IMG/VR virus record: IMGVR_UViG_3300042554_001750
Length of the DNA: 64,000 nucleotides
Strand: one strand, 5' to 3'
From: a virus
Taxonomy: Duplodnaviria; Caudoviricetes
Of the stretch, positions 25,792-55,818 are shown piece after piece. The stretch's first letter is position 1, and every line of letters begins with the position of its first letter. The notes beneath the pieces are model-generated. The model made no database searches. It saw nothing but the letters and a program-made list of their open reading frames with translations, and was not told the DNA's origin. The position numbers were made by a program, and so were the translations under genes.

Positions 25792-25866
25792 TGGAGGTTC
25801 GCCAAGTGGTAAGGCCCCGGATTTTGATTCCGGTATGCATAGGTTCGAATCCTATACCTCCTGCCA
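25792..25866 (+). tRNA. tRNA-Gln(TTG)
   Basis: CCGGA-TTTTGAT-TCCGG; TTCGAAT T-loop; CCA encoded; U1:U72 mismatch. Confidence 0.92.
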
Positions 25867-25872
25867 AACATT

Positions 25873-25947
25873 GCCTCATTAGCTCAGTGGTAGAGCAATC
25901 GCTTGATAAGCGATAGGTCCGTGGATCGTTCCCACGATGAGGCACCA
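25873..25947 (+). tRNA. tRNA-Ile(GAT)
   Basis: ATCGC-TTGATAA-GCGAT; CCA. Confidence 0.92.
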
Positions 25948-25952
25948 GTTTT

Positions 25953-26016
25953 AGGATACTAACAGCAAATTTTATACATTAGACTTTTAATCTAAACCGT
26001 AAAAATGTATCCTGTT
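25953..26016 (+). ncRNA. ACAGCAA-family RNA 1 (Lys-UUU anticodon-arm mimic)
   Basis: AGGATAC/GTATCCT stem, TA-ACAGCAA, TTAGA-CTTTTAA-TCTAA hairpin, no T-arm, GTT tail. Confidence 0.65.
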
Positions 26017-26025
26017 ATTTTCAAT

Positions 26026-26101
26026 GGTGCTCTTAGTGTAGTGGTCTGCACACCATGTTGTGACCTTGGTAGTATGAGTTCAATCCTCATAGAGTACCCC
26101 A
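26026..26101 (+). tRNA. tRNA-His(GTG)
   Basis: G-1 encoded, C73; CCATG-TTGTGAC-CTTGG; CCA. Confidence 0.9.
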
Positions 26102-26119
26102 ATTATTAAGGAGATTAAA

Positions 26120-26215
26120 ATGAATTGGGAACAAATGTGCGAGACACACAAAGAAAGTATTCAAGCATGGGATAATCTTTGTGAGGTCTATAGGGGGTGC
26201 CTTTACGCACTCTGA
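26120..26215 (+). CDS. Small hypothetical protein (31 aa)
   Basis: AAGGAG SD; MNWEQMCETHKESIQAWDNLCEVYRGCLYAL. Confidence 0.45.
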   Translation: MNWEQMCETHKESIQAWDNLCEVYRGCLYAL

Positions 26216-26223
26216 GATTATAA

Positions 26224-26300
26224 GCATCCGTAACTCAGTGGATAAGAGTACTGTGCTACGAACGCAGGAGTCGGAGGTTCGAATCCTTCCGGATGCGCCA
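26224..26300 (+). tRNA. tRNA-Arg(ACG)
   Basis: CTGTG-CTACGAA-CGCAG; CCA. Confidence 0.93.
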
Positions 26301-26306
26301 GTTATG

Positions 26307-26381
26307 GCTGATGTAGCGTAGTGGTAGCGCACTATCTTGGTAAGATAGGGGTCATGAGTTCAATCCTCATCATCAGCACCA
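26307..26381 (+). tRNA. tRNA-Thr(GGT)
   Basis: CTATC-TTGGTAA-GATAG; CCA. Confidence 0.93.
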
Positions 26382-26392
26382 ATAAATAAAAC

Positions 26393-27022
26393 ATGCAATC
26401 AGTTCCTAGAATTTCTTTAGCATGTGGACCTGCTGATGATGTTAGAACATTTAATTTGAAATTACCTTTCTTACAAAGAAGAATTGGTGTTCTAGTCAGC
26501 GGCGGATTAGATAGTGCGTTGTTGTATTATTGTTTACGATTAATAGAAAATGAAAACTATACAGTAACGCCTTATACTATCACTAGAAATGATGGTTCTA
26601 GTACACATGCACAACAGGTAATTGATTGTGTGAATAATATTCTTAATAAAAAAACACAGACTACTACAATAGTTACTATATCTGAACAGAATAGCGAATT
26701 ACAAGTTTCTGCAGGTATGAGAGTATTATTCAATACTAATCATAATATATTTTATATTGGATTAATAGAAACATTATCAGAACATGCAATTGGAGTTCCG
26801 AAACCATGGACTCCCGTAGATAGTTTAAGGGTTAATTTTCCCTTTAAGAATTTAAATAAATCACATATTGTTGATTTAATTTATAAATTTGATATTACTG
26901 AATTATTAAACATTACACATAGTTGTGTTTATCCAACAGGTAGATGCAATGTGTGTAATAGATGCAACGAAAGACAATGGGCATTCACTAAATTAGGTTT
27001 AGTGGATCCCGGCACCAGTTAG
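26393..27022 (+). CDS. QueC-like PP-loop ATPase
   Basis: VLVSGGLDS PP-loop; P..NLNKSHIV; THSC...CNVCNRC zinc site. Confidence 0.78.
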   Translation: MQSVPRISLACGPADDVRTFNLKLPFLQRRIGVLVSGGLDSALLYYCLRLIENENYTVTPYTITRNDGSSTHAQQVIDCVNNILNKKTQTTTIVTISEQNSELQVSAGMRVLFNTNHNIFYIGLIETLSEHAIGVPKPWTPVDSLRVNFPFKNLNKSHIVDLIYKFDITELLNITHSCVYPTGRCNVCNRCNERQWAFTKLGLVDPGTS

Positions 27023-27086
27023 GGATACTTACAGAAAATACTAACCAAACGATAGGTCGTTGGGTCAATCCCACTACTGGACACCA
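27021..27086 (+). pseudogene. Chimeric remnant: 5' end of an ACAGCAA-type RNA fused to a tRNA 3' half
   Basis: GGATAC-TT-ACAGAAA, then a T-arm-like hairpin and ACTGGAC-ACCA with no matching 5' acceptor strand. Confidence 0.5.
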
Positions 27087-27102
27087 ACAGAAAGGAAATA
27101 TC

Positions 27103-27351
<249 letters not shown>

Positions 27352-27353
27352 AT

Positions 27354-27382
27354 TTGACATAAATTATATTTTGTGTTACACT
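27354..27382 (+). promoter_or_regulatory. sigma70-type promoter
   Basis: TTGACA-17-TACACT immediately before tRNA-Arg(TCG). Confidence 0.75.
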
Positions 27383-27383
27383 A

Positions 27384-27459
27384 GGGACATTAACTCAGTG
27401 GACAGAGTGCTTGGCTTCGAACCAAGTGGTCAGGGGTTCGAATCCTCTATGTCCCTCCA
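27384..27459 (+). tRNA. tRNA-Arg(TCG)
   Basis: CTTGG-CTTCGAA-CCAAG; CCA. Confidence 0.93.
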
Positions 27460-27508
27460 GTAAGGCTCTAAATAAATGTAGACAGGCATAAAGAAAGCGA
27501 GGTTTATA

Positions 27509-28069
27509 ATGGCTGTTCTAGCACTAGATATAAGTGGAGTTCCCCGGCAATGGATCTCTTACGATGATGCAATTACTTACCAAGCTAAAAATGCTGTGGC
27601 ATGGTCTATGGGAGAAGTTGTTGCAAGATATCGCGGTGGAATCCAGAATGACGGCACATTGAGTTATCTGGAAACGCCTAGTATCATTGCCATTAAGGGT
27701 CATGGATTTGATCCGTATAAGCATGCACAAGTCGCATTAAGTAACAGAACATTGTTTGGTCGTGACCGACATGTATGTGCATATTGCGGTGGGCATTTTG
27801 CTAACTATCATTATCTAAGCCGTGATCACATTCTGCCTAAGAGCCGTGGTGGTGAAAACACTTGGATGAATGTTGTTACCGCATGTAAAGAATGTAATGG
27901 AAAGAAAGGTAATAAGACGCTTAAGGAAGCCCGTATGGAACTTCTATACGCACCTTATGTGCCTAATCACTTTGAAAACATGATTCTACAGAATCGCAAT
28001 ATTATTGCAGATCAGATGGAGTATCTATTGACAGGTGTTCCTAAGCATAGTAGAATTTTGAAAAATTAG
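27509..28069 (+). CDS. HNH endonuclease
   Basis: RDRHVCAYCG, RDHILPKSRGG.NTW.NVVTACKECNGKK. Confidence 0.92.
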   Translation: MAVLALDISGVPRQWISYDDAITYQAKNAVAWSMGEVVARYRGGIQNDGTLSYLETPSIIAIKGHGFDPYKHAQVALSNRTLFGRDRHVCAYCGGHFANYHYLSRDHILPKSRGGENTWMNVVTACKECNGKKGNKTLKEARMELLYAPYVPNHFENMILQNRNIIADQMEYLLTGVPKHSRILKN

Positions 28070-28081
28070 GATAACATGGGG

Positions 28082-28111
28082 TTGACAAAAAAATCAACTC
28101 TATGTTATACT
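28082..28111 (+). promoter_or_regulatory. sigma70-type promoter
   Basis: TTGACA-18-TATACT. Confidence 0.6.
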
Positions 28112-28127
28112 TAATAAATATTGAGAA

Positions 28128-28201
28128 GCCCTTGTAGTATATTGGTATTACAATTGCCTTGTAAGCATTAGAAGATGGTTCGATTCCATACTGGGGCACC
28201 A
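28128..28201 (+). tRNA. tRNA-Thr(TGT), several stem mismatches
   Basis: ATTGC-CTTGTAA-GCATT; CCA. Confidence 0.82.
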
Positions 28202-28207
28202 AACAAT

Positions 28208-28282
28208 TCCAGATTAGCTCAGAGGTAGAGCAGTTGACTGTTAATCAATTGGTCCCTGGTTCGATCCCAGGATCTGGAGCCA
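28208..28282 (+). tRNA. tRNA-Asn(GTT)
   Basis: GTTGA-CTGTTAA-TCAAT; CCA. Confidence 0.94.
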
Positions 28283-28296
28283 AATAATTTAATTGT

Positions 28297-28503
28297 ATGC
28301 TATTCAACGAACACGAAACATTTCAGTACCATTGCGATATAAACAAATATTGTATTAGTGGTATTGATTATTATGATGTACATTTTTACACAGTATATTT
28401 GGATGCTAAAAATCCAAATGAAAAGCATACAAAATTAAGAATGAATTTAACTCAATCTGAATTTAGTTCATTCTGTAAAATTTTTAAAAATTATCAGGAG
28501 TAG
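28297..28503 (+). CDS. Hypothetical protein
   Basis: 68-aa ORF directly before the SpeD-like gene. Confidence 0.6.
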   Translation: MLFNEHETFQYHCDINKYCISGIDYYDVHFYTVYLDAKNPNEKHTKLRMNLTQSEFSSFCKIFKNYQE

Positions 28504-28504
28504 T

Positions 28505-28867
28505 ATGTCACATTGGGGTTATCATTTAATGCTTGATTGCAGTGGATGCAATACAGGTATCGCTAGTAAAGACACAATCTATAATTTTGTCAAAGATTTA
28601 GTTAAGCGTATAGATATGGTTTCACACGGTGAACCTATTATTGAATATTTGTTACCCGGAGATCCTAAACAAGGATATAGTCTATTACAATTGATTACTA
28701 CTTCCAACATTAGTGCTCATTTTATGGAATTGGATGGCACTGCATATTTTGATATTTTTAGTTGTAAACCTTTTGACATTGAAACTGCAAAAAATATAGT
28801 TTCAGAATATTTTAGTCCAAAAAAAATGAGAGTAAACTTTATTACTCGCCACGCCGATATAGATTGA
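28505..28867 (+). CDS. speD: S-adenosylmethionine decarboxylase-like proenzyme (pyruvoyl)
   Basis: WGYHLMLDCSGC, GYS..QLITTSNISAHF, YFDIFSCKPFD. Confidence 0.85.
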   Translation: MSHWGYHLMLDCSGCNTGIASKDTIYNFVKDLVKRIDMVSHGEPIIEYLLPGDPKQGYSLLQLITTSNISAHFMELDGTAYFDIFSCKPFDIETAKNIVSEYFSPKKMRVNFITRHADID

Positions 28868-28901
28868 CTAATAATCACTAGTGTAGTAAAGTACACACTT
28901 A

Positions 28902-28979
28902 CTGGCGTTAGCTCAGTTGGATAGTAGCAACAGCCTTCTAAGCTGTAGGTCAGGGGTTCGAATCCCTTACGCCAGGCCA
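28902..28979 (+). tRNA. tRNA-Arg(TCT)
   Basis: ACAGC-CTTCTAA-GCTGT; CCA. Confidence 0.93.
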
Positions 28980-28985
28980 AATAAT

Positions 28986-29059
28986 ATCTCCTTAGTGTAA
29001 CGGCAGCATACGGGTCTCCAAAACCCTTGGTGGGAGTTCGAATCTCTCAGGGGATGCCA
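28986..29059 (+). tRNA. tRNA-Trp(CCA)
   Basis: CGGGT-CTCCAAA-ACCCT; CCA. Confidence 0.9.
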
Positions 29060-29090
29060 AGAAAAGGTAAACAAAATTTTTAAAAAATGT

Positions 29091-29151
29091 TTGACAATAA
29101 ATCAGAACTGTTATATACTAGCATCTGTTGATTGATTAATGTTCTTTAAAA
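29091..29151 (+). promoter_or_regulatory. sigma70 promoter with boxA-like site
   Basis: TTGACA-17-TATACT (29091-29119); TGTTCTTTAAAA (29140-29151). Confidence 0.75.
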
Positions 29152-29167
29152 GTTAAGTAAGTTTTTT

Positions 29168-29193
29168 GCCCGGGTGGTGAAATAGGTAGACAC
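29168..29193 (+). pseudogene. 5' fragment of a tRNA-Leu gene
   Basis: GCCCGGG-TG-GTGAAATAGGTAGACAC (acceptor 5' strand and D-arm) stops abruptly before the HNH gene. Confidence 0.7.
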
Positions 29194-29244
29194 TATAATA
29201 ATTACTTTCTTTGTGTTTAGTATAAATACATTAAGGAGATTATT

Positions 29245-29703
29245 ATGATTGTTTTGACTGAATACATCAAACGGGACAGAAGTGTGCGTAGGGCACATTT
29301 GGATTTGTCTGAGTCATGCCTTGAAAGAGGCGGAAATTCTACTAATCATAAAGGTGTTCTCGCACAATTTTTAAATACAGATATTCCTTCTGGTAGAATT
29401 TTGCTTTGCCATGCTTGTCATAATGGAAAATGCTCAAACCCCAAACATTTGTATTGGGGAACGGACCGTGATAATCTTGAAGATGCTAAAGAAAATGGGA
29501 CTCATAAAAGTCCTTGGGATAACCTTGTTGAAAAACATGGTTATGAAAAAGCATGTCAGATAAACAGTATCAAAATGCAAAATAACACTAATGGCTCAGG
29601 AAATGCAGGTAAATCTAAATCAGAGGAACACAAGAAAAATATTTCACTAAACCGCAAGGGTGGTAAACCTAAAGGTTGGCGAAAAAACAAATCTAGTGTA
29701 TAA
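29245..29703 (+). mobile_element. His-Me finger (HNH-type) homing endonuclease with NUMOD3-like tail
   Basis: CHACHNGKCSNPKHLYWGT..DN; KSEEHKKNIS; late promoter TATAAATA at 29221. Confidence 0.82.
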
Positions 29704-29714
29704 TAAAGTTTGTT

Positions 29715-29799
29715 GCGAGTGTGACGTAAGTGGTAGCCGTAGGAGACTTAAAATCTCCCGCCGTTAGGCGTGCCGGTTCGAGTCCGGCCACTCGCACCA
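29715..29799 (+). tRNA. tRNA-Leu(TAA)
   Basis: GGAGA-CTTAAAA-TCTCC; long variable arm; CCA. Confidence 0.94.
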
Positions 29800-29919
29800 T
29801 ATTGAAGCACATTGTAAGCCATTGCCGATGATCAAGGCAGCGTAGGGTGGCAGAAAGTAGATAATCGGCCGATACAGCTACTGAACCGCCTAGATAGTAT
29901 AGTGTGTTTCAATATGGTG
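29795..29919 (+). ncRNA. Long-stem structured RNA 2 (overlaps the tRNA-Leu ACCA)
   Basis: 19-bp CACCATATTGAAGCACATT/AGTGTGTTTCAATATGGTG enclosing TGCC/GGCA and a multi-segment TAGGGTGG...CCGCCTA arm. Confidence 0.65.
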
Positions 29920-29924
29920 ATTTA

Positions 29925-30001
29925 GGGCCTATAGCACAATTGGTTAGTGCAAACGACTCATAATCGTTAGGTTACAGGTTCGAGTCCTGTTGGGCCCACC
30001 A
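29925..30001 (+). tRNA. tRNA(CAT), probably Ile2
   Basis: AACGA-CTCATAA-TCGTT; GGGCCTA acceptor typical of Ile2; CCA. Confidence 0.85.
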
Positions 30002-30010
30002 TTTAATTTT

Positions 30011-30102
30011 GGAGCGTTGACCGAGAGGCTGAAGGTAGCGGTTTGCTAAACCGTCCACGTACTAAAATACGTGCATAGGTTCGAATCCTATACGCTCCGC
30101 CA
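30011..30102 (+). tRNA. tRNA-Ser(GCT)
   Basis: GCGGT-TTGCTAA-ACCGT; long variable arm; G73; CCA. Confidence 0.94.
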
Positions 30103-30113
30103 AAGGACATAAT

Positions 30114-30476
30114 ATGCACTTTACTATTCCTGAAGAATATATTACTGATGTTACAGTTAGGCATGAATACGATTATGTTAAAGATCGTAACAATCCTACA
30201 CATGAAGACCTTATCAAAATCCTTAAGGGATATGATAAAGGATATAGTATCAGTAGCAAAGACCACGATGAGTTTACTAAATTGCGTAACCAACTTGAAA
30301 GTGAAGGTTACATTAAGTGTGAGCGTGGTTGGTGGAATGGTGATCGTGTATTAAAGCCGTTCTATTTGAATGAATGGAAGTTTAAAAAGAATCATAAGTT
30401 TCCTTGCGCGGCAGCAATGCGTACAGGTATTGACTGTGCTAGGAAATTTGGATGGAAAAGTATTTCAAGTTTATAA
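30114..30476 (+). CDS. Hypothetical protein
   Basis: AAGGA SD; 120-aa ORF. Confidence 0.72.
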   Translation: MHFTIPEEYITDVTVRHEYDYVKDRNNPTHEDLIKILKGYDKGYSISSKDHDEFTKLRNQLESEGYIKCERGWWNGDRVLKPFYLNEWKFKKNHKFPCAAAMRTGIDCARKFGWKSISSL

Positions 30477-30489
30477 CAGAAAGGTAAAA

Positions 30490-30663
30490 ATGAAACCTAC
30501 TTCAACTTTTAAATTGCCCAAGTCTACTAAGATGTTACTAGATAATATCTTGGATCCGCATCTCCGCGGATCAATGCGTAGAGATTATATTAAGGCAATT
30601 TTAGAAAATCAAGTAAAAGCGAAATCTAATAAAAAGGATCGCAATCAAACTAACGATGAATAA
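30490..30663 (+). CDS. Small basic hypothetical protein
   Basis: AAGG SD before ATG 30490; MKPTSTFKLPKSTK. Confidence 0.6.
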   Translation: MKPTSTFKLPKSTKMLLDNILDPHLRGSMRRDYIKAILENQVKAKSNKKDRNQTNDE

Positions 30664-30668
30664 TTAAT

Positions 30669-30753
30669 GTATCGGTGGCAGAGTGGTTGAATGCAACGGA
30701 TTGCAAATCCGTACCGTATAGGCGCGTCGGTTCGAATCCGACCCGATACTCCA
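30669..30753 (+). tRNA. tRNA-Cys(GCA) with class II (long variable arm) scaffold
   Basis: ACGGA-TTGCAAA-TCCGT; 13-nt variable region ACCGTATAGGCGC; U73; CCA. Confidence 0.85.
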
Positions 30754-30758
30754 TTAAT

Positions 30759-30848
30759 GGAAGCGTGGTAGAGCGGTTGAATACACTGGTCTTGAAAACC
30801 AGCGAACATGAAAGTGTTCCGTGAGTTCGAATCTCACCGCTTCCGCCA
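30759..30848 (+). tRNA. tRNA-Ser(TGA)
   Basis: CTGGT-CTTGAAA-ACCAG; long variable arm; CCA. Confidence 0.94.
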
Positions 30849-30863
30849 ACAAAGGAGTCTAAT

Positions 30864-31442
30864 ATGCCCAGCGTGTTTTTAGTAAGTGATACTCACTTCG
30901 GTCACGCCGGAGTGTGTAGATTTTTGCGTGATGATGGAACCAAACTGCGTCCCTGGGATGACCCCAATGAAATGGACGAAGAAATGGTCAAGCGTTGGAA
31001 CGAAAGAGTAAAGCCTAACGATAAAGTTTATCATTTAGGTGATGTAGTAATTAATCGTAAAGCACTGAACATCCTTCGTAGATTGAACGGGGATAAGGTG
31101 CTTATCAAAGGTAACCACGATATTTTTAAGTTGGAAGATTATACTGACCACTTTAGAGATATTCGTGGCTATCATGTTATGAACGGTATGATTTTAAGTC
31201 ATATCCCTGTCCATGAAGAAAGTTTGGGCCGTTTTGGTGTAAACATTCACGGACATCTTCATGCAAACCGCGTTGTCAAAATCAAGCACAAGGGTGCTAC
31301 ACCTGAAGTTGATCACAGATATCATTGTGTTTGTGTGGAACAAACTGATTTTGCACCTATCTTATTTGAGGATGTGTTAAAGCGAATCAAAGAAGAAGGT
31401 GGCGAAGTTGGCTTTAAAAATGGTAATGGTGTTGTTATGTAA
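30864..31442 (+). CDS. Calcineurin-like metallophosphoesterase
   Basis: SDTHFGH, HLGD, GNHD, SHIP, HGHLH. Confidence 0.92.
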   Translation: MPSVFLVSDTHFGHAGVCRFLRDDGTKLRPWDDPNEMDEEMVKRWNERVKPNDKVYHLGDVVINRKALNILRRLNGDKVLIKGNHDIFKLEDYTDHFRDIRGYHVMNGMILSHIPVHEESLGRFGVNIHGHLHANRVVKIKHKGATPEVDHRYHCVCVEQTDFAPILFEDVLKRIKEEGGEVGFKNGNGVVM

Positions 31443-31458
31443 CTTTACCCAAAATTAC

Positions 31459-31487
31459 TTGTCAACAAGTGACTTTGGTGACATAAT
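31459..31487 (+). promoter_or_regulatory. sigma70-type promoter of the ACAGCAA-RNA/DUF2828 unit
   Basis: TTGTCA-17-CATAAT. Confidence 0.6.
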
Positions 31488-31511
31488 AACATCATTGAGT
31501 TAGAGATTATA

Positions 31512-31668
31512 AGGATCGGTACAGCAACATTTACTTTATAGTGAATGGTCTGGGCATAGTATGGTACATGCTGGAGGGACAACCCGTTGAAGGTGTGTAT
31601 TGAAATACTCCGGACGAACTCAGAGTGATGGCCTGAGTATAATAAAAGCAGTCAACAACGATCCTGTT
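31512..31668 (+). ncRNA. ACAGCAA-family RNA 2
   Basis: AGGATCG/CGATCCT stem, GT-ACAGCAA, CATTTAC/GTGAATG, GTCTGG/CCGGAC and ACTCAG/CTGAGT helices, GTT tail. Confidence 0.7.
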
Positions 31669-31676
31669 ATTTTGTT

Positions 31677-31872
31677 AGGATGATGACAGCAATCTAAAAC
31701 AATACTGCCTTGTTTTAGGGAAACCTAAACAGCCTGTTGGGGTTAGCCAACTTTGTGTCTAGTCAAGATACTAGGATCGGTCATGTACGATACATGATAG
31801 GCTTGTGGTACAAACTCCCTTAGTGGTAGGGGGCAAGCAGAAATATAAAATACCCGTATCGGTCATCCTGTT
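31677..31872 (+). ncRNA. ACAGCAA-family RNA 3
   Basis: AGGATGA/TCATCCT stem, TG-ACAGCAA, 10-bp TCTAAAACAA/TTGTTTTAGG, GTTGG/CCAAC, CTAGT/ACTAG, TCATGTA/TACATGA and CTCCCT/AGGGGG hairpins, GTT tail. Confidence 0.7.
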
Positions 31873-31880
31873 AGAATTAG

Positions 31881-31936
31881 TGAATGCTAACAGCAACTTT
31901 TTATTCAAACTTGAAAATTGAAATAAAACGCATTCA
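31881..31936 (+). ncRNA. ACAGCAA-family RNA 4 (abuts the DUF2828 RBS)
   Basis: TGAATGC/GCATTCA stem, TA-ACAGCAA, TTCAA/TTGAA hairpin around CTTGAAA. Confidence 0.65.
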
Positions 31937-31950
31937 GAAAGGAAAATGAA

Positions 31951-33366
31951 ATGAACGCATTTGTAAACGCAGTAGCGAACCAAGAAGCCCGTACCCAAAA
32001 TGGTATGAAGGCTCGTAAGTCTAGTGCTAACGCACTGGTTGATCTGTTCTATAACATCGGTGCAAGCCGTGGTAAGAACATTGTACCTGCTTTTACCTCT
32101 GCCTATGTCCAAGATAAGGACTTGGCATTGCGTATCGCATTGTGGGCCCGCGATGCCCGTAGTGGAGCAGGCGAACGTCAATTGTTCCGTGATATCTTGA
32201 CTCATTTGGAAAAGACTGATCCCGATGCGGCAGTCCGTCTGTTGAACAAGGTACCTGAACTTGGTCGTTTTGATGACTTGTTTGTTTTCAAGTCAAAGGA
32301 CATGAAGGCTAAGGCTTACACTCTGTTGGGTGATAACCTTCGTGTTAAGAATGGTCTTGCGGCTAAGTGGACTCCTCGTAAGGGCCCTGTTGCCCGCGAA
32401 ATCCGTGAGTTCTTCGGCATGAGTCCTAAGAACTACCGTAAGACTTTGGTCTCTATGACCAATGTCGTTGAATCACAAATGTGTGCCAACGACTGGGACA
32501 ACATCAACTTCAGCCATGTTCCCTCACAGGCTGCACGAATCTACAAGAAGGCGTTCAACCGTCATTCTGTTAAGTTCGCAGAGTATGTACAGAAGTTGGT
32601 TAGTGGAGATAAGACTGTCAAGGTTAACGCCGGCGCGATCTATCCTCATGATGTCCTGAAGGGTGTGATCAATGCATATGGTCGTGCGTCTTATGACAAG
32701 ACCGAGTTGGATCACATTGTTGCGCAATGGGATGCATTGCCTAACTATGTTGGTGATGCTAACATCATGCCGCTTGTTGACGTTAGTGGTTCTATGACTT
32801 GCCCTGCAGGTAAGAACACTAACGTTCGTTGCTTGGATGTTTCAGTCTCATTGGGATTGTACTTGGCTGATAAGAACAAGGGTGCGTTCCACGGAACCTT
32901 CTTGACTTTCAGCGAAAAGCCTGAATTGATGACCCTAAAGGGTAACATCGTTCAAAAGGCTGATCAAATGATCAAGTCAACTTGGGGCATGAGTACCAAT
33001 CTACATGCGGCTTTTGACAAGATCCTTAGCACCGCAGTTAAGAATTCTGTTCCTAACAGCGATATGCCAAAGATGTTGTTGATCCTTAGCGATATGCAGT
33101 TCAACCAATGCGTCCGTCATGATGACTCAGCAATGGAAATGATTGAACGCAAGTATCGTGACGCAGGCTACGAAATGCCAGCAGTGGTTTTTTGGAACTT
33201 GAACAGTAGCGACAACGTTCCTGTCAAGTCAGACAAGAGTGGTGCGGCACTTGTGTCAGGGTTCAGCCCAAGCATCATGACTAGTCTGTTGTCAGCAGAC
33301 CCGCTGGAATTCACTCCAGAAGGTATGATGATGAAGACCATCATGGCAGATCGTTACGATTGCTAA
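31951..33366 (+). CDS. DUF2828-type protein (helical TROVE-like N-terminus and vWA C-terminus; Ro60-like layout)
   Basis: DLFY, RDARSGAGER..FR, PELGRFDDL, AAKWTPR, VPS.A, DVSGSM MIDAS, GMSTNL, SDMQF, VFWNL. Confidence 0.82.
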   Translation: MNAFVNAVANQEARTQNGMKARKSSANALVDLFYNIGASRGKNIVPAFTSAYVQDKDLALRIALWARDARSGAGERQLFRDILTHLEKTDPDAAVRLLNKVPELGRFDDLFVFKSKDMKAKAYTLLGDNLRVKNGLAAKWTPRKGPVAREIREFFGMSPKNYRKTLVSMTNVVESQMCANDWDNINFSHVPSQAARIYKKAFNRHSVKFAEYVQKLVSGDKTVKVNAGAIYPHDVLKGVINAYGRASYDKTELDHIVAQWDALPNYVGDANIMPLVDVSGSMTCPAGKNTNVRCLDVSVSLGLYLADKNKGAFHGTFLTFSEKPELMTLKGNIVQKADQMIKSTWGMSTNLHAAFDKILSTAVKNSVPNSDMPKMLLILSDMQFNQCVRHDDSAMEMIERKYRDAGYEMPAVVFWNLNSSDNVPVKSDKSGAALVSGFSPSIMTSLLSADPLEFTPEGMMMKTIMADRYDC

Positions 33367-33375
33367 TGGACTATA

Positions 33376-33409
33376 AAGTTATATCGGATTAATCCGATAT
33401 AACTTTTCT
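33376..33409 (+). terminator. Terminator after DUF2828
   Basis: Perfect 13-bp AAGTTATATCGGA/TCCGATATAACTT followed by TTCT. Confidence 0.7.
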
Positions 33410-33426
33410 AGGAGTTATAATTTAAA

Positions 33427-34032
33427 ATGTTTGAAAAATTACAATTAATAAATCCTCATCCTAGCACAGAGTCTATATATGTAGGTGATATTCCTGCTGA
33501 AATTTTTTCAGAAATACAAACTAAGGTCAGTAAACTTCAAAAAAATTTTTTTGCAGTGTCTAAACTAACTTCTATGAATAAAAGTTTAGTTGGTCAAATA
33601 GAAAACTCGGTAAGAATGACTCCTCTACCTAGTTTAGAATCTTTCTTAAAAAACTTCTTTAAAGAAAATATATCAACTAAAGACATTGAAATTCATAGTA
33701 ATTGGGTAAACTTTCAAAAGAAAACAGAATACAATCCCAATCATACTCATACCGGTGACTGGGCATATGTGATATGGGTTAAAATACCCTTTTCATTTAA
33801 TGAAGAGGACATAGCACCCAATTCTATTCATTCAAGCACGAAAACTAATGGAAGATTTGAATTATCCTACATAAATGAAAATCTAGAAGTTACTTCAAAA
33901 AAGCTTGAAGTTGATTCAAAATTTGAAGGAAAATTTATTTTATTCAGATCCAATACACGGCATTGTGTATATCCATTCTATACCTCAGATGACTATAGAA
34001 TTTCTATGGCAGGAAATATTATATTTGTATAA
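33427..34032 (+). CDS. Putative 2OG-Fe(II) oxygenase
   Basis: WVNFQ...YNPNHTH, YVIW, ILFRS...HCVYPF, RISMAGNI. Confidence 0.78.
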   Translation: MFEKLQLINPHPSTESIYVGDIPAEIFSEIQTKVSKLQKNFFAVSKLTSMNKSLVGQIENSVRMTPLPSLESFLKNFFKENISTKDIEIHSNWVNFQKKTEYNPNHTHTGDWAYVIWVKIPFSFNEEDIAPNSIHSSTKTNGRFELSYINENLEVTSKKLEVDSKFEGKFILFRSNTRHCVYPFYTSDDYRISMAGNIIFV

Positions 34033-34040
34033 ATAAAATT

Positions 34041-34315
34041 GCAACTAGGTAAGTGTATAACGACACTTTAAACAAGATTGTGGACGCACATGATTCGGCC
34101 TAGTTCAACGATCACTCGGCTTACACTTTGCCGTAATCAAAAGTGGGTAGGCAGTTACCATATCTGCCGGGTACGCACGAACTTGACCTTAAGGCCCGCG
34201 ATGTATGGGCGACTTAAAAATATCGTGGGGCAGAACTTGACTGTCCATATGGAGACAAGTAGGACGGAACCTTACACCCATGTCGGGGCTTGGTAGTGCG
34301 AGTAGCCGACATTCT
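34041..34315 (+). ncRNA. Candidate structured RNA (~270 nt) after a late promoter
   Basis: TATAAATA at 34028; AACTAGG/CCTAGTT, AAGTGT/ACACTT, CACTTT/AAAGTG, GGCAG/CTGCC, CCGCGATGT/ATATCGTGG, GGGCAG/CTGTCC and ATGTCGG/CCGACAT helices. Confidence 0.55.
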
Positions 34316-34317
34316 TC

Positions 34318-34384
34318 TTGACAATAATTCCTACTTAGTATATAATAAGTGCATACGCTGAGAAATCGGCAATGCTCTTTAACA
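34318..34384 (+). promoter_or_regulatory. sigma70 promoter with boxB-like hairpin and rrn-consensus boxA
   Basis: TTGACA-17-TATAAT; GCTGA-GAAA-TCGGC (34357-34370); TGCTCTTTAACA (34373-34384). Confidence 0.85.
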
Positions 34385-34401
34385 GTTTATTGGTTTTATT
34401 T

Positions 34402-34478
34402 GGGACGTTAGCTCAGTTGGTAGCAGCACTCGGCTTTTAACCGATAGGTCATTGGTTCGAACCCAATACGTCCTACCA
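34402..34478 (+). tRNA. tRNA-Lys(TTT)
   Basis: CTCGG-CTTTTAA-CCGAT; CCA. Confidence 0.92.
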
Positions 34479-34587
34479 TATTAAAACACATTCAAGGCAA
34501 AGTACAAGCCTGGCAGAAGGTGCAGCCTTGCCCCGTATGGAGCAATGGTGGACGGTGCTACTCCGTCGAGTGTGTTTTAATATGGTA
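34474..34587 (+). ncRNA. Long-stem structured RNA 3 (overlaps the tRNA-Lys ACCA)
   Basis: TACCATATTAAAACACATTC/GAGTGTGTTTTAATATGGTA enclosing CAAGGC/GCCTTG and GACGG/CCGTC. Confidence 0.65.
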
Positions 34588-34592
34588 TCTTT

Positions 34593-34668
34593 GCTCGGTT
34601 CGTCTATCGGTTTAGGACGCTAGCCTTTCACGCTGGAAAGACGGGTTCGATTCCCGTACCGAGTACCA
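34593..34668 (+). tRNA. tRNA-Glu(TTC)
   Basis: CTAGC-CTTTCAC-GCTGG; CCA. Confidence 0.93.
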
Positions 34669-34682
34669 GTATTAAATACAGT

Positions 34683-34877
34683 ATGATTGTTGAAACCGTT
34701 AAAACTTATACTCATTGGGCCCGTGATAATATTGTTACCAAACAATATGTCACCGAAGTGGACAATAGCAATAAAAGAGTTTTAACAGTTATTGAAAATT
34801 CTTACATGCCCTACAGTATCAGAGGTGAGTTGCAAAAAGAAGATACTAAAGGTAAACATATTGATGTAAAAGTTTAA
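34683..34877 (+). CDS. Small hypothetical protein
   Basis: ATG 4 nt after TAAATA; no SD. Confidence 0.6.
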   Translation: MIVETVKTYTHWARDNIVTKQYVTEVDNSNKRVLTVIENSYMPYSIRGELQKEDTKGKHIDVKV

Positions 34878-34880
34878 AAC

Positions 34881-34965
34881 GGAGATGAAGCATCAATGGT
34901 GATGCAGTGGACTGTAAATCCGCCGCCTTATGGCACGACTGGTTCGATCCCAGTAATCTCCACCA
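34881..34965 (+). tRNA. tRNA-Tyr(GTA)
   Basis: GTGGA-CTGTAAA-TCCGC; variable arm; CCA. Confidence 0.93.
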
Positions 34966-34972
34966 AGATATT

Positions 34973-35049
34973 GCACCGTTAGATCAGTTGGTTAGATCGC
35001 ATGCCTGTCACGCATGAGGCCAGGGGTTCAAGTCCCCTACGGTGCGCCA
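34973..35049 (+). tRNA. tRNA-Asp(GTC)
   Basis: CATGC-CTGTCAC-GCATG; G73; CCA. Confidence 0.94.
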
Positions 35050-35053
35050 AATT

Positions 35054-35130
35054 GGTCGGGTATCTTAAGAGGAAGTAGAGCCTCCCTCATAAGGAGGAAT
35101 GTGGGATTTCGAGCGTCCCCCTGACCACCA
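35054..35130 (+). tRNA. tRNA(CAT), probably elongator Met, atypical D-arm
   Basis: CCTCC-CTCATAA-GGAGG; GGGAT-TTCGAGC-GTCCC; CCA. Confidence 0.8.
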
Positions 35131-35145
35131 GATAAATAATTTTGT

Positions 35146-35222
35146 GCGGGTATAGTGTTTAACGGTAGCACGGCAGCCTTCCAAGCTTTAAGAGAGGAGT
35201 TCGAATCTCCCTACCCGCTCCA
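35146..35222 (+). tRNA. tRNA-Gly(TCC)
   Basis: CTTCCAA loop; U73; CCA. Confidence 0.9.
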
Positions 35223-35223
35223 G

Positions 35224-35271
35224 TTGACAATATGTATGAAATCAAATATACTTCATACTTGTTCTTTAAGA
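35224..35271 (+). promoter_or_regulatory. sigma70 promoter with boxA-like site
   Basis: TTGACA-17-TATACT; TGTTCTTTAAGA (35260-35271). Confidence 0.7.
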
Positions 35272-35284
35272 TAAATAGTTTTTT

Positions 35285-35369
35285 GCCCTGGTGGTGTAAT
35301 TGGTAGCCACGCTGGTCTTAGAAGCCAGTGCTTAATCGCGTGTCGGTTCGAGTCCGACCTAGGGCACCA
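35285..35369 (+). tRNA. tRNA-Leu(TAG)
   Basis: CTGGT-CTTAGAA-GCCAG; variable arm; CCA. Confidence 0.94.
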
Positions 35370-35412
35370 CAATTTATTGGGAAATCACTTGCCTAGAGGA
35401 ATAAATACTTAT

Positions 35413-35967
35413 ATGAAAAGAGTTTATATAAGTGATATGCCCTGGGAAGAAATACAAAGGCACTACAACGAAGGAATGTCTTTGCGTGATTTACAGAAAA
35501 AGTTCAGAATTAGTTTTAAAACTTTTCAAAAAGCAAAAAAATTGAACTTATTTGTGCCTAGAGATTTATCATCAGCAATGAAAATAACTTTGATGATTAA
35601 CCCTAGAAATTACTCACATATAAGAAAGAACAGGTCAGCACTTAAAAATTATAGGGCTGATTGTACTTTTAAGTTTAACTTGTCAGATTATCCTGACGAA
35701 TTCAATTTTGAATTGATTGAAAGCTATGGTTGGTATAAACCCAAAAATAGGGGCGATAATATCAATGGTGTTAGCAGAGACCATGCAGTAAGTGTAAAAT
35801 ACGGGTTCGACAACAATTTACCTGCTGAACATTTGGCTCACCCTGCTAATTGTGTTTTAATGAGACACGGTGATAATGTGTCTAAATATAGCAAGATATC
35901 AATGTCTTATGAAGAATTGCTCAAACGCATTGAAGCATGGGACCAGAAATATGGGGGATTGGTATAG
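35413..35967 (+). mobile_element. HNH-type endonuclease with N-terminal HTH
   Basis: GMSLRDLQKKF HTH; SRDHAVS...HPANCVLM.H.DN; ATG 5 nt after TAAATA; stop inside tRNA-Ala. Confidence 0.75.
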
Positions 35968-36027
35968 TTGGGAACACGATGCCCTTGCAAGGCATAGTCA
36001 GCGGTTCGACCCCGCTATCCTCCACCA
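35953..36027 (+). tRNA. tRNA-Ala(TGC)
   Basis: ATGCC-CTTGCAA-GGCAT; G3:U70; CCA. Confidence 0.93.
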
Positions 36028-36033
36028 ATCAAT

Positions 36034-36109
36034 TGCGGCCGAGGGAGACAGTAACCCGCCAGTCTCATAAGCTGGAGATACCTGGTGCGACTCCAGGGGT
36101 TCGCAACCA
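36034..36109 (+). tRNA. tRNA(CAT), initiator-like but atypical
   Basis: TGCGGCC acceptor with one bulged nt on the 3' strand; CCAGT-CTCATAA-GCTGG; TGCGACT T-loop; CCA. Confidence 0.7.
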
Positions 36110-36152
36110 ATTAATATTTTTATTCTATATCTTATAGATAAGTAAGTTTACT

Positions 36153-36228
36153 CTCGGATTAGTATAGCCTGGTAGTATCCGTGCTTTGGGAGCATGTGGC
36201 GGGGGTTCAAATCCCTCATCCGAGACCA
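36153..36228 (+). tRNA. tRNA-Pro(TGG)
   Basis: CGTGC-TTTGGGA-GCATG; CCA. Confidence 0.93.
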
Positions 36229-36245
36229 TTTAAATTGAGGAAAAT

Positions 36246-36377
36246 ATGGCAGCAAAAAGTGAACAAAGAAAGAGTGTTGTAAAGCGTACTAGTCAAGGCG
36301 GTAGTAGCCCCAAGACCAGTTCAATGAATAAAACTGAAAAGCGTAGTTTCAAAAAGAATAGAGGACAAGGCAAATGA
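36246..36377 (+). CDS. Small basic protein (43 aa)
   Basis: GAGGA SD; MAAKSEQRKSVVKRTSQGG...KKNRGQGK. Confidence 0.6.
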   Translation: MAAKSEQRKSVVKRTSQGGSSPKTSSMNKTEKRSFKKNRGQGK

Positions 36378-36550
36378 GTGGCAAAGGTAGTAGTCCAAGA
36401 CCTTTTAGTGTGTCTCAAGAAGAATACGCAAATCGCTGGGACGCTATCTTTGGACGAGATTTAACTGATGATCTTAAAGTTAAGGAAGATGAACAAGCAT
36501 TGGACGAAGCTTTTGATCAAATAGAAACAGAGCAAGAAATTCGTAAATGA
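36374..36550 (+). CDS. Small acidic protein (58 aa)
   Basis: ATGA overlap; MSGKGSSPRPFSVSQEEYANRWDAIFG. Confidence 0.65.
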   Translation: MSGKGSSPRPFSVSQEEYANRWDAIFGRDLTDDLKVKEDEQALDEAFDQIETEQEIRK

Positions 36551-36556
36551 AATATT

Positions 36557-36632
36557 GGATCGTTAGCTCAGTTGGTAGAGCGGCGCCCTTACAAGGCGTA
36601 GGTCGGCGGTTCGAACCCGTCACGATCCACCA
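36557..36632 (+). tRNA. tRNA-Val(TAC)
   Basis: GCGCC-CTTACAA-GGCGT; CCA. Confidence 0.94.
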
Positions 36633-36647
36633 ATAATAAATAATGTT

Positions 36648-36797
36648 ATGAAATTGTTTGAGGCAACAATAAGAGTTAATGGTAAAGAGTTTAAAGATAG
36701 AGTCGGCGCAAACAACGCTGAAGAAGCTAAACTCTTACTGCAACAACGACATGGTCCAAGAGCCGTTCCTTATTTGCCAAAAATGATTCCAAGTTAA
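36648..36797 (+). CDS. Small hypothetical protein (49 aa)
   Basis: ATG 5 nt after TAAATA; MKLFEATIRVNGKEFKDRVG. Confidence 0.55.
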   Translation: MKLFEATIRVNGKEFKDRVGANNAEEAKLLLQQRHGPRAVPYLPKMIPS

Positions 36798-36798
36798 T

Positions 36799-36872
36799 GC
36801 GGGTATGATGTAAAGGTAACCTGAATCCTTGCCAAGGATTATTTGCGAGTTCGATTCTCGCTACCCGCTCCA
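36799..36872 (+). tRNA. tRNA-Gly(GCC)
   Basis: AATCC-TTGCCAA-GGATT; U73; CCA. Confidence 0.93.
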
Positions 36873-40022: not shown

Positions 40023-40328
40023 GTGAACGATATTATTGTACCGGCACCTACCGCTGAATGGACTGATAAAGATTGGAATAAATTCCGTGATTGGTTGAAG
40101 GGTATGTTGAAAGTAGGTGAAATGACAATCACCTTCACAAAGAAAGATGGAACCGAGCGTGTTATGAATTGCACCTTGAATCCTGACCAGTTGCCTCCTG
40201 CACCAGTTACTGAAAATAAAAAAGAACGCAAGGTCAATGATGATGTTTTGGCAGTGTATGATATTGAGGCAAAAGGATGGCGTAGTTTTACACTTAAGAC
40301 CGTTATCCGTGTTCAACTAACCATTTGA
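40023..40328 (+). CDS. WYL-like/SH3-fold protein
   Basis: TITFTKKDGTER.MNCTL; VYDIE.KGWRSF. Confidence 0.72.
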   Translation: MNDIIVPAPTAEWTDKDWNKFRDWLKGMLKVGEMTITFTKKDGTERVMNCTLNPDQLPPAPVTENKKERKVNDDVLAVYDIEAKGWRSFTLKTVIRVQLTI

Positions 40329-40353
40329 CAATAAATGCCATATCTGCTAGAAT
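40325..40353 (+). promoter_or_regulatory. Early promoter
   Basis: TTGACA-ATAAAT..-17-TAGAAT. Confidence 0.8.
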
Positions 40354-40379
40354 ATGGGTTATGTCGTTAGAGATTCATT

Positions 40380-40550
40380 ATGAACAAGCAACACCTTTCT
40401 TTTAAGATTCCACGAATCAAGCCTCGTTCACACAAGGCGCTTTTTGACAATGATCTTCCTTTCCAACCCAAGATTGAGAAGGCCAAAAAGTCTCAGTACA
40501 ATCGGCGTCCCAAGCATAGAAACACCCCAGATTGGGATTCCGAATATTGA
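40380..40550 (+). CDS. ArfA-like small basic protein (56 aa), not in ORF track
   Basis: KALFDNDLPFQPKIEKAKKSQYNRRPKHRNTPDW aligns by eye with the ArfA core. Confidence 0.6.
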   Translation: MNKQHLSFKIPRIKPRSHKALFDNDLPFQPKIEKAKKSQYNRRPKHRNTPDWDSEY

Positions 40551-40575
40551 CAATAAATGGATATCCTGTTACACT
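40547..40575 (+). promoter_or_regulatory. Early promoter
   Basis: TTGACA-ATAAAT..-17-TACACT. Confidence 0.8.
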
Positions 40576-40581
40576 TAAAAC

Positions 40582-40992
40582 ATGGAAATCAAAGTAGAAG
40601 GTAGTCGCAGGAACCGTAAATTCGTAGAGGCATTATTGCCTTCTATGATTACTCAACTGAACCTGGACAACTGCCGTAAAGGTCTGCTCATTCGCATTTA
40701 TGATGAATGTGAGGACAATCAAGGGATAACACTAGACCTGACCAATCTTACTGGTTGCTATCTTGTTGTTATCAAGCCCGACCGTAACTTGAAAGAAATG
40801 GGACTTACCCTTGCCCATGAATTAGTACATGTAAAGCAAATGGCTAAAGGTACACTAAAGACCACAAAAAATGGAAACCATCTTTGGGCCGGCAAAAAGT
40901 ATAGTAAGAAAATGGCATACTTAAATATGCCTTGGGAAGTTGAAGCCTTCAGTCGCCAAGAACTCATCCTCCGTCGTGCATTTGAGGAATAA
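40582..40992 (+). CDS. HExxH metallopeptidase-like protein
   Basis: LAHELVHVKQ ... YLNMPWEVEAF. Confidence 0.7.
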   Translation: MEIKVEGSRRNRKFVEALLPSMITQLNLDNCRKGLLIRIYDECEDNQGITLDLTNLTGCYLVVIKPDRNLKEMGLTLAHELVHVKQMAKGTLKTTKNGNHLWAGKKYSKKMAYLNMPWEVEAFSRQELILRRAFEE

Positions 40993-53706: not shown

Positions 53707-54177
53707 ATGAAAAGAATCCTATTAGGATTGTTGTTCATGCCGGTTGTAGCATCTGCACAACTTGTACAACAGTTTAAAAATCCGGCTTTCAATAGCCAGG
53801 GTTGGAGCAGCCATGCACTTACGATTGATAGTATAGAAAAAAGTCGCAAGGATGCTATAGCTGCCGAGAAAAAGGCTGAGTTAGCAGCATTAGAAGCAGC
53901 AGCACAAAATACACCTTTAGCTAGATTTATGAATTTGTTCAGCAGCCAAGTGTATGCGCAACTTGCTACTCAATTAAGTAATAATTTATTTCAGAACAAA
54001 TGTGCTGGAGTAGCCGGGCCTATTCCGGGTTGTGTCAATCCAACTACCGGACAGTTTCAATTAGACGGCAATACGGTTACATGGGTTAAAACAGATAAAG
54101 AAGTAACATTAACTGTTGTTGATGCCAAAGGTACAATCACAATTGTTAAAGTACCTATAGCAAGTTTTGGATTCTAA
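53707..54177 (+). CDS. csgF: CsgF-like curli assembly component
   Basis: Signal peptide; LVQQFKNPAFN; SQVYAQL..QL; IVKVP. Confidence 0.72.
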   Translation: MKRILLGLLFMPVVASAQLVQQFKNPAFNSQGWSSHALTIDSIEKSRKDAIAAEKKAELAALEAAAQNTPLARFMNLFSSQVYAQLATQLSNNLFQNKCAGVAGPIPGCVNPTTGQFQLDGNTVTWVKTDKEVTLTVVDAKGTITIVKVPIASFGF

Positions 54178-54178
54178 T

Positions 54179-54991
54179 ATGAAATATACTAAAATATTAA
54201 TTGCGTGTTTATCAGCCTTAGCATTTACTGGATGTAGTACTATAAGACCTATGCAGGATTTAGAAAGAACTACGGAACCTAGAATTGCTGAAAATATTAA
54301 TGAAAGTTTTAAGGATGTTGCAGCGCCTGCAGGCCCACCAGTTGTAGTGGCTGTGTATGGCTTCAAGGATCTGACAGGACAGCGTAAGCCTAGCACTACA
54401 CTAAGCAGTTTCAGCAGTGCAGTTACACAAGGCGCTGAAAGTTATCTAATTAAGAGTTTACAGGAAGTTGGCAACCGTCAGTGGTTTACTGTAGTTGAGC
54501 GTGTTGGTCTAGACAATCTGTTAAAAGAGCGTCAAATGATCAAACAAACCCGTGAAATCTATGATGGTGCCAATGCTAAGATGTTACCTCCTCTTGCACT
54601 AGCCGGAGTTATACTAGAAGGTGGAATCATTGATTACAATAGTCATACATTAACAGGCGGTACTGGTGCTCGTTGGTTAGGTATTGGACCATATACACAG
54701 TATACCCAAGATTTAGTTGTTATCAGTATGCGTTTAGTAAGTGTTCAAACCGGTGAAGTACTAACCACCGTAACCGTTGAAAGAGACCTACTAAGCACCG
54801 GAGAAGGTATAACAGCTTTAAGATTTTTCAATCAAGCAACTAAAGCTTTTGAATTTGACAGTAGCCAAACATACAACGAACCCGGCAACTATGCATTGCG
54901 TAGTGCCATAGAAACTGGGGTTGTTGAATTGATTCGCAAAGGAGAACGTCAGGGCCTTTGGAAGTACAAAACACCTGACACTAAAAAATAA
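54179..54991 (+). CDS. csgG: CsgG curli secretion lipoprotein
   Basis: Lipobox AFTGC; VAVYGFKDLTGQRKP, SSAVTQGA, WF.VVER.GL.NLL.ERQ, EGGII.Y. Confidence 0.92.
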   Translation: MKYTKILIACLSALAFTGCSTIRPMQDLERTTEPRIAENINESFKDVAAPAGPPVVVAVYGFKDLTGQRKPSTTLSSFSSAVTQGAESYLIKSLQEVGNRQWFTVVERVGLDNLLKERQMIKQTREIYDGANAKMLPPLALAGVILEGGIIDYNSHTLTGGTGARWLGIGPYTQYTQDLVVISMRLVSVQTGEVLTTVTVERDLLSTGEGITALRFFNQATKAFEFDSSQTYNEPGNYALRSAIETGVVELIRKGERQGLWKYKTPDTKK

Positions 54992-55015
54992 TAATAACAA
55001 GGGAGTATTCCTCAT

Positions 55016-55810
55016 ATGAAATTTAATAAAATATTTGCAGCAGCAATATTATCTTTAAGTGGGTTATCTGCATTTGCGCAAACTGCCGTGACACCACCCA
55101 CTGCACCCACTGTTCCCAACACAGTAACAGTTAGTCCCAATGCTACCACAGCATTGGGTAACAGCACAACCAACCGCATCTTTATTGATCAAAGTGGTTC
55201 CAATCCTGATGTGAACATGACACAAGATGGCAGTGGCAACAAGCAAGGAAGCGCACAAAGACCCATTTACTTGCGTGGTGCTGATCAGGTGATCATCACT
55301 CGTCAGATTGGCAACAACAATGAGATAGACTTAGAAGTTTCCAATCCCACAACAGGAGCCAGTGTGGGTGCCAAAGTTACCATTCAACAGATTGGCAACA
55401 GCAACAAAGTTGATGCAGCTTGCGGATATGGTAACAGCAGCACTGGCACAGCTCTAACAGGTTGCAAGAATGCTGACTTGAACTGGAAGTTCACTGGCAA
55501 CAGCAATGAGTTTCAGTTCCGTGCCAGTGGTGACGACATTCGCAGTGCTGTCACAGTAGCAGGCAATGGCAACAAGTTCTGGATTGACGCTGTGGGCAAC
55601 AAGCACAGTCAGACTCTAATGGTAACTGGTGACAACAATGAATTCAATCTAAGTCAAACCAGTACTGGCAGTGCTGGCAGCAGCATCTGGATTGATCAGA
55701 CTGGCACTGGCACCAAGTTCTTTGTGGCTCAAAGTGGAACTGTTGACAACGTTCTGAACATCAAGAGTGTTGCAACAGGAGGAACCTTTAATATAGTTCA
55801 GAAGAACTAA
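55016..55810 (+). CDS. Secreted curlin-like repeat protein
   Basis: Signal peptide; repeated (I/V).Q.G..N units. Confidence 0.7.
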   Translation: MKFNKIFAAAILSLSGLSAFAQTAVTPPTAPTVPNTVTVSPNATTALGNSTTNRIFIDQSGSNPDVNMTQDGSGNKQGSAQRPIYLRGADQVIITRQIGNNNEIDLEVSNPTTGASVGAKVTIQQIGNSNKVDAACGYGNSSTGTALTGCKNADLNWKFTGNSNEFQFRASGDDIRSAVTVAGNGNKFWIDAVGNKHSQTLMVTGDNNEFNLSQTSTGSAGSSIWIDQTGTGTKFFVAQSGTVDNVLNIKSVATGGTFNIVQKN

Positions 55811-55818
55811 GGATCATT

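Follow-up and report, generated by a model that had tools for sequence, protein, structure and literature searches.

The 56-codon open reading frame (ORF) described here, from a large, uncultured freshwater phage, is a protein-coding gene under purifying selection, and sequence comparison supports placing its family as a distant, remodelled relative of ArfA, homologous to it over the central and C-terminal half. We lean towards the view that the peptide acts early as an RF2 adaptor on non-stop ribosomes, independently of tmRNA. Positions refer to the window, i.e., the whole stretch of 64,000 nucleotides that was analysed, and the features of the locus are collected in Table 1.

Selection and distribution of the gene

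The first-pass annotation had described a basic 56-aa ORF with a stop codon and no hydrophobic tail, and both descriptions held. The frame at 40380-40550 closes with TGA, its product contains 14 Lys and Arg residues vs. 6 Asp and Glu (pI 10.2), and its final 10 residues form a polar stretch (GRAVY -2.4) with an acidic end. A polar C-terminal end was also found in 97% of family members. Searches returned homologues at 65 viral loci, in 115 clusters at 50% and in 327 clusters at 90%, with ORFs at the family loci being 47-60 aa long. Over 16 disjoint pairs dN/dS was 0.15, and comparison of the query with five relatives gave pS values of 0.66-0.98 vs. pN values of 0.21-0.33. The frame is identical in a second strain, and across a clade the gene holds its position, with the WYL_2 gene on one side and two further early genes on the other. 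An AAA ATPase gene follows 18 of 76 family loci.

The distribution is patchy: among phages picked by a neighbouring gene, the family was present at 3 of 36 loci and in 1 of 14 records. In our searches its members were found in phages only, and a single pattern scan of GTDB genomes returned no cellular relative, an absence that is suggestive at most since one pattern was used. A tblastn search of 50,697 GenBank phage records with the query and two relatives found no cultured member; the sole match of one relative was the ArfA of Pseudoalteromonas phage J2-1 (E 1). In the ESM Atlas, unnamed viral clusters were obtained at 0.90, and DUF7230 occurs in 17% of the members of one of them, which we regard as a lead only.

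The window also carries 26-28 tRNA genes and genes for translation initiation factor IF-1 and ribonucleotide reductase. Since the closest cultured reductases (55-61%) belong to phages of Xanthomonas, Ralstonia, and Stenotrophomonas, sequence similarity suggests a proteobacterial host. The IF-1 gene (PF01176; 49495-49707, minus strand) adjoins genes for superoxide dismutase and Fe-S assembly, and a 339,748-bp contig also carries the IF-1 of the window. ARAGORN placed 26 tRNA genes within 25792-36872, where two weak Rfam matches (34881-34962 and 36035-36105) were obtained as well; two more tiny ORFs, of 43 aa (very basic, PHROG 17967) and 58 aa, lie in the tRNA cluster at 36246-36550, and a DUF2828/DUF7788 protein is encoded in the tRNA region at 31951-33366. 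A CsgF-CsgG-FecR-CHASE2 cyclase cluster occupies 53707-57069. No tmRNA was detected in the window, nor was one above cut-off in five family carriers.

Table 1. Features of the locus, in window coordinates
Feature	Position	Strand	Basis or remark
WYL_2 gene (PF10902), upstream neighbour	40023-40328	+	Pfam match; near 30 of 76 family loci
Sigma70-type early promoter, TTGACA-17-TAGAAT, TG-extended	40325-40353	+	11/12 consensus; overlaps WYL_2 stop
Putative out-of-frame uORF, 14 codons	40361-40405	+	Overlaps first codons of ArfA-like ORF
ArfA-like ORF, 56 aa, basic	40380-40550	+	ATG to TGA, stop at codon 57
Front motif R16-x-H18-x-x-L21-F22	40425-40445	+	93, 92, 99, and 93% conserved; replaces ArfA helix 15-24
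P27-F28 to E33, predicted RF2 patch/strand	40458-40478	+	Aligns with ArfA L24-F25 to E30 (PMC5378476, PMC8012679)
Y40-x-R42-x-x-K45-H46, predicted channel tail	40497-40517	+	Corresponds to ArfA Y39, R41, K44, H45; KH: PMC8012679
Possible stem-loop, 11 bp	40502-40543	+	Over last codons, ends 4 nt before stop
Next early promoter	40547-40575	+	-35 box holds TGA stop of ArfA-like ORF
Putative metallopeptidase gene, downstream neighbour	40582-40992	+	Leaderless, from own promoter

Relationship to ArfA

The ORF is not a member of ArfA in the strict sense: it misses the cut-off, the KGKGS stretch, and non-stop expression. The query had no match among Pfam, PHROG, or NCBIfam models, and on the ArfA model PF03889 it stayed below the Pfam cut-off of 25.5 bits. 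Relatives scored 21.6, 18.9, and 18.6 bits, those at 21.6 and 18.6 being 62-67% identical to the query. PF03889 singles out family ORFs in this way below its cut-off, which was reached by no family member among those scored. The HMM search that the first-pass annotation had proposed was therefore positive, at sub-cut-off scores, only through relatives, since the query matched none of the models.

When the query was compared by phmmer with the whole PDB (177,635 sequences), ArfA chains alone were returned at E <= 10 (best E 0.038), reproducing an alignment with E. coli ArfA that had been drawn by eye. A 133-row family profile likewise returned ArfA chains alone at E <= 10 (E 0.0045), and BrfA was absent from the matches of both searches at this threshold; other family profiles found ArfA at E 0.0011 (6 rows) and E 0.06 (a deeper profile). 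Profile-profile comparison of the family with nine ArfAs gave a probability of 89.9 and a P of 1.7e-6 over 24 columns, and only ~24-25 columns are alignable between the two. A profile of canonical, KGKGS-type ArfAs, built mostly from viral sequences, scored 44 of 278 family members above 10 bits, compared with 0.04% of shuffles and no reversed sequence. Reciprocally, the family profile scored 25 of 61 canonical ArfAs above 10 bits vs. 0.13% of shuffles, and in 7 of 20 records holding a canonical ArfA gene that gene was its sole match. Among 942 six-frame segments of the window, the ORF had the top score on the KGKGS-type profile (8.7 bits, with 4.1 for the runner-up), and 1 of 5000 shuffles scored as well. 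In the JGI annotation, the name ArfA is given to 8 of the 120 best matches and also to a protein with 67% identity to the query. Thus, the kinship claimed for the ORF is supported at the level of the family, by PDB matches and reciprocal profiles, while the query has no direct family match of its own.

Convergent or vestigial likeness is a quite improbable explanation, according to which the peptide would be a DUF7230-like early product, small and basic, that binds RNA or protein and has no rescue role. The missing direct match and the low-complexity, basic sequence of the query fit such a peptide, as do the brush of the 6-row profile with ribosomal protein L39 (E 0.037) and the larger number of members, among 133, that match DUF7230 (53) than ArfA (14). 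However, the signal vanishes in shuffled and reversed controls, deeper profiles lose L39 but retain ArfA, and the J2-1 ArfA passes the cut-offs of both ArfA and DUF7230, tying the latter to ArfA. The J2-1 protein scores 41.3 bits on PF03889 yet is without KGKGS and has the spacing of the family, so that loss of the loop is possible inside the ArfA lineage.

Genes of the KGKGS type and of the family seem to stand in for one another. Records holding both numbered 0 of 30 and 0 of 20, most of these records being fragments. One KGKGS-type gene directly precedes the same AAA ATPase gene that is found at family loci, a single case, and an adjacent gene was shared with canonical ArfA loci in 1 of 10 regions.

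Anatomy of the peptide

In E. coli ArfA, Leu19, Leu24, and Phe25 bind RF2 Trp319, residues 25-29 form a strand added to RF2 domain II, Pro23 stacks on the decoding bases, and residues 31-48 occupy the mRNA channel; ArfA truncated at Asn47 is active and ArfA truncated after Met40 is inactive (PMC5378476). The most conserved columns of the phage family include those with which ArfA binds RF2 and the channel. P27 is conserved in 96% of members and F28 in 95% (Tyr in 5%), K/R, V, and E columns follow F28, and the Pro at the position of Gln27 is also found in 17 of 61 canonical ArfAs. In the tail, Y40 is conserved in 86%, R42 in 98%, K45 in 98%, and H46 in 83%, and KH, the only motif common to ArfA and BrfA (PMC8012679), is present in 234 of 264 members. 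The query keeps 10 residues past this tail motif, and its length after KH exceeds that of the active minimum (Asn47; PMC5378476).

The KGKGS stretch is missing, as had been noted: KGKG occurs in 0 of 264 members, and the Phe-to-Tyr spacing is 12 in the query and 11-12 in the family vs. 14 in E. coli ArfA, so that the loop is shorter by 2 residues in the query and by 3 in most members. No single residue of KGKGS is essential (PMC6299226), and the ArfA loop sets a three-nucleotide limit (PMC8012679). The front half of the peptide is new. It carries RxHxxLFD, with R16, H18, L21, F22, and P27 each more than 90% conserved, and the equivalent of Pro23 is shifted to one position later.

The E. coli front half is needed to activate RF2, and ArfA(A18T) binds but is dead (PMC8012679). 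It is unlikely, though conceivable, that the phage peptide resembles this variant, docking in the channel and on RF2 as a decoy that cannot open RF2. Non-stop ribosomes would then be occupied, with tmRNA-SmpB or host ArfA kept out, and the phage would benefit because its products are spared tagging or because ribosomes are parked during takeover. The part that has been replaced is indeed the activating N-terminal part, an early, strong promoter is typical of takeover genes, and in the register chosen by the first-pass annotation, which sets A20 on Ala18, the family column is V in 43% and I in 9%. However, the query carries Ala even in that register, and the other register, which sets L21 on Leu20 with a two-residue insert and is favoured by P0091, P0042, P0070, and the RsoM2USA ArfA, yields a K/R column as in short KGKGS-type ArfAs. 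Moreover, blocked rescue would cost the phage its ribosomes, and the apparent substitution of KGKGS-type and family genes for each other speaks against a decoy.

An AlphaFold model of the peptide was extended with one short helix (residues 19-22; pTM 0.29), and Foldseek found no match with it. The predicted complex with E. coli RF2, used as a stand-in, scored 0.43 vs. 0.00 for the best control, with a contact agreement among runs of at least 67% and a partner pLDDT of at least 51. Of 80 solved pairs, 58 attained the mark set for such scores, as did 2 of 110 mismatched pairs, and scores reaching it at <= 0.60 came from just 7 of the 80 solved pairs and from both mismatches. The model lends weak support to RF2 binding, and memory of the solved ArfA-RF2 structures may contribute to it.

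Transcription, start site, and RNA structure

The ORF had been credited with its own promoter, and the site at 40325-40353 (11/12, with extended TG) bears this out. A regional promoter scan was by itself mildly above chance (36 sites vs. 26.8 +/- 5.1), and a promoter of at least 10/12 lay within 40 nt of the ATG at 45 of 48 distinct homologous loci vs. 6% at random positions. The overlap of the stop codon with the -35 box of the next promoter recurs at 25 of 48 family loci. Between 38453 and 42154 of the window, near-perfect sigma70 promoters stand in series, ~1 per small gene, mostly with TTGACAATAAAT in common, and the next -35 box often contains the stop codon of the preceding gene.

The ATG at 40380 lies 26 nt past the -10 box and has no Shine-Dalgarno sequence before it. 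In 32 of 45 family members the start lies 6-9 nt past the -10 box, and these are therefore leaderless or nearly so. In the query this leaderless position, 7 nt past the -10 box, is taken by the uORF ATG at 40361; the same 14-codon uORF is found in strain L001, and in relative L222 the peptide itself begins, in frame, at the equivalent ATG. Expression of the query copy may be reduced by the leaderless, out-of-frame uORF. That the family is functional while the query copy is silenced, or translated poorly, is very improbable, even with the in-frame start of L222, the start position of most members, and the absent Shine-Dalgarno sequence in its favour: the closest relatives (L002, L003, L153, and L156) have a similar leader without a Shine-Dalgarno sequence, and the frame of the query is intact, shows a synonymous excess vs. 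relatives, and recurs unchanged in the second strain.

Expression of E. coli arfA is kept low via a long hairpin and a hydrophobic tail. Neither a long RNase III hairpin nor a terminator was found at the ORF, and z-scores for the hairpin span were -4.1 for E. coli arfA, -2.0 for the ORF, and -1.1 for the family mean. The possible 3' stem-loop gave a z of -3.06, in a stretch chosen after the fact, and is without a U-run. Mean z for the 3' region was -1.6 in the closest subclade vs. -0.25, a modest signal from related sequences, and RNAalifold returned no consensus 3' structure. Considering the early stop, the polar tail, and the lack of an E. coli-like hairpin, the tmRNA-dependent (non-stop mRNA) switch is most likely absent. 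The anatomy thus agrees with the earlier proposal of constitutive rescue as far as loss of the non-stop switch is concerned, while the word "constitutive" goes further and is weakened by the uORF and the modest 3' stem-loop. One metatranscriptome contained a single 151-nt contig over 40437-40587 (depth 2.7, share 0.06), which is no evidence of expression since late genes were covered alike and DNA could be its source.

Proposed role

The RF2-adaptor function that we favour would proceed as follows. Host RNA polymerase would transcribe the gene at once on infection, and synthesis of the peptide should not hinge on failing tmRNA since the mRNA keeps its stop codon. The basic KH tail would insert into the mRNA channel left empty on a non-stop 70S ribosome, domain II/IV of host RF2 would gain a strand from F28 and residues 28-33, and RF2 would be opened by the RxHxxLFD helix in place of the N-terminal minidomain of E. 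coli ArfA. The peptidyl-tRNA would be hydrolysed without addition of an SsrA tag, and the ribosome would rejoin the pool available to phage mRNA. Nothing was found in support of the link to host mRNA/tRNA destruction that had been suggested.

A clearly less likely reading of the sequences is a phage-only ArfA branch that owes a new activity to the invariant RxHxxLFD helix and the shortened loop, be it as a dominant decoy protecting ribosomes against tmRNA tagging or as an adaptor that, with changed release-factor or mRNA-length specificity, takes ribosomes off host messages early in infection. Changed specificity, i.e., for RF1, for a phage mini release factor, or for ribosomes with some mRNA in the A site, is itself improbable. 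The new invariant residues would imply a new contact, ArfT works with either RF (PMC6299226), the loop that sets the mRNA limit in ArfA is shorter here, and two carriers encode GGQ proteins, one of them RF1-like. On the other hand, F28, the counterpart of the RF2-specific F25, is among the best conserved residues, and the 99% complete carrier G002 is without a release-factor gene, so that the partner would generally be a host factor. The RF1-like gene (L146, reverse strand ~1219-1887, in the complete 364-kb relative G001) encodes a short release factor without domain I and has an in-frame TGA after ~codon 35, where read-through autoregulation is possible. The other GGQ protein (L147, G006) is ArfB-like.

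If the peptide is an active adaptor, large phages use an unregulated factor to control ribosome rescue already in the first minutes after infection. Both KGKGS and the N-terminal minidomain of E. coli ArfA would be dispensable, the core being the KH motif together with Phe25 and the strand, and hundreds of natural variants would answer the point left open in a review, whether KH matters (PMC8012679). A function would also be provided for DUF7230 and several PHROGs. The surprise is limited by the fact that phage ArfA has already been annotated and that the JGI pipeline calls some family members ArfA.

Comparison with known systems

Phage ArfA genes are not new. GenBank annotates them in Pseudoalteromonas phage J2-1, in Brevundimonas phage Bambus, in Citromicrobium phage RXM (g10; PMC8953757), and in pelagiphage HTVC027P, whose gp30 shows high expression both early and late (PMC12753301), and KGKGS-type ArfA genes are common in viral contigs. 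Like the ORF, the annotated proteins are phage-encoded, mostly short, and stop-terminated, and that of J2-1 is also without KGKGS. Unlike the ORF, those scored pass PF03889 and have an ArfA-type front half, most have KGKGS, and they are known from annotation alone. A limited literature search found no paper testing a phage ArfA or describing a branch without KGKGS. Unannotated KGKGS-type ORFs are present in the cultured Ralstonia phage RsoM2USA (L073:2534-2656; 25.7 bits, above the Pfam cut-off), Pseudomonas phage pf16 (L076), and Caulobacter phage Cr30 (L078), two of them under a spurious opposite-strand CDS, and these are the phage ArfAs easiest for in vivo tests. KGKGS-type motifs also occur inside longer phage ORFs (L096, L100, L108, L142; L124-L144), of 112-119 aa, where the C-terminal domain is basic, or of 66-68 aa, where the N-terminus is extended.

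DUF7230 (PF23876) and PHROGs 6310, 2701, and 18092 are small, basic peptides that match the C-terminal half of the family over ~20 residues. The PHROGs match 49, 43, and 23 of the 133 members, respectively, and the best relative matches DUF7230 with an E of 4.4e-7; the query itself matches none of the four and lies below the 27-bit cut-off of DUF7230. BrfA (Bacillus) and ArfT (Francisella) are release-factor adaptors with basic channel tails, both cellular whereas the ORF is viral. Factors of this kind are adapted to their species (PMC8012679). arfT is without an RNase III site (PMC8874680), and BrfA shares the KH motif with the ORF and functions with another N-terminus (PMC8012679).

A close parallel is E. 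coli ArfA (YhdL; PF03889; PDB 5MDV, 5U4I, 5H5U, and 5MGP), which the ORF resembles in the length of the active form, in Phe25, strand 25-30, Tyr39, Arg41, and Lys44-His45, and in the basic C-terminal half and the short helix before Phe. It differs in the absence of KGKGS, in the RxHxxLFD front half, and in a Pro one position later; it is viral, and its frame stops at the active length, with neither the hydrophobic tail nor the long RNase III hairpin of the E. coli gene.
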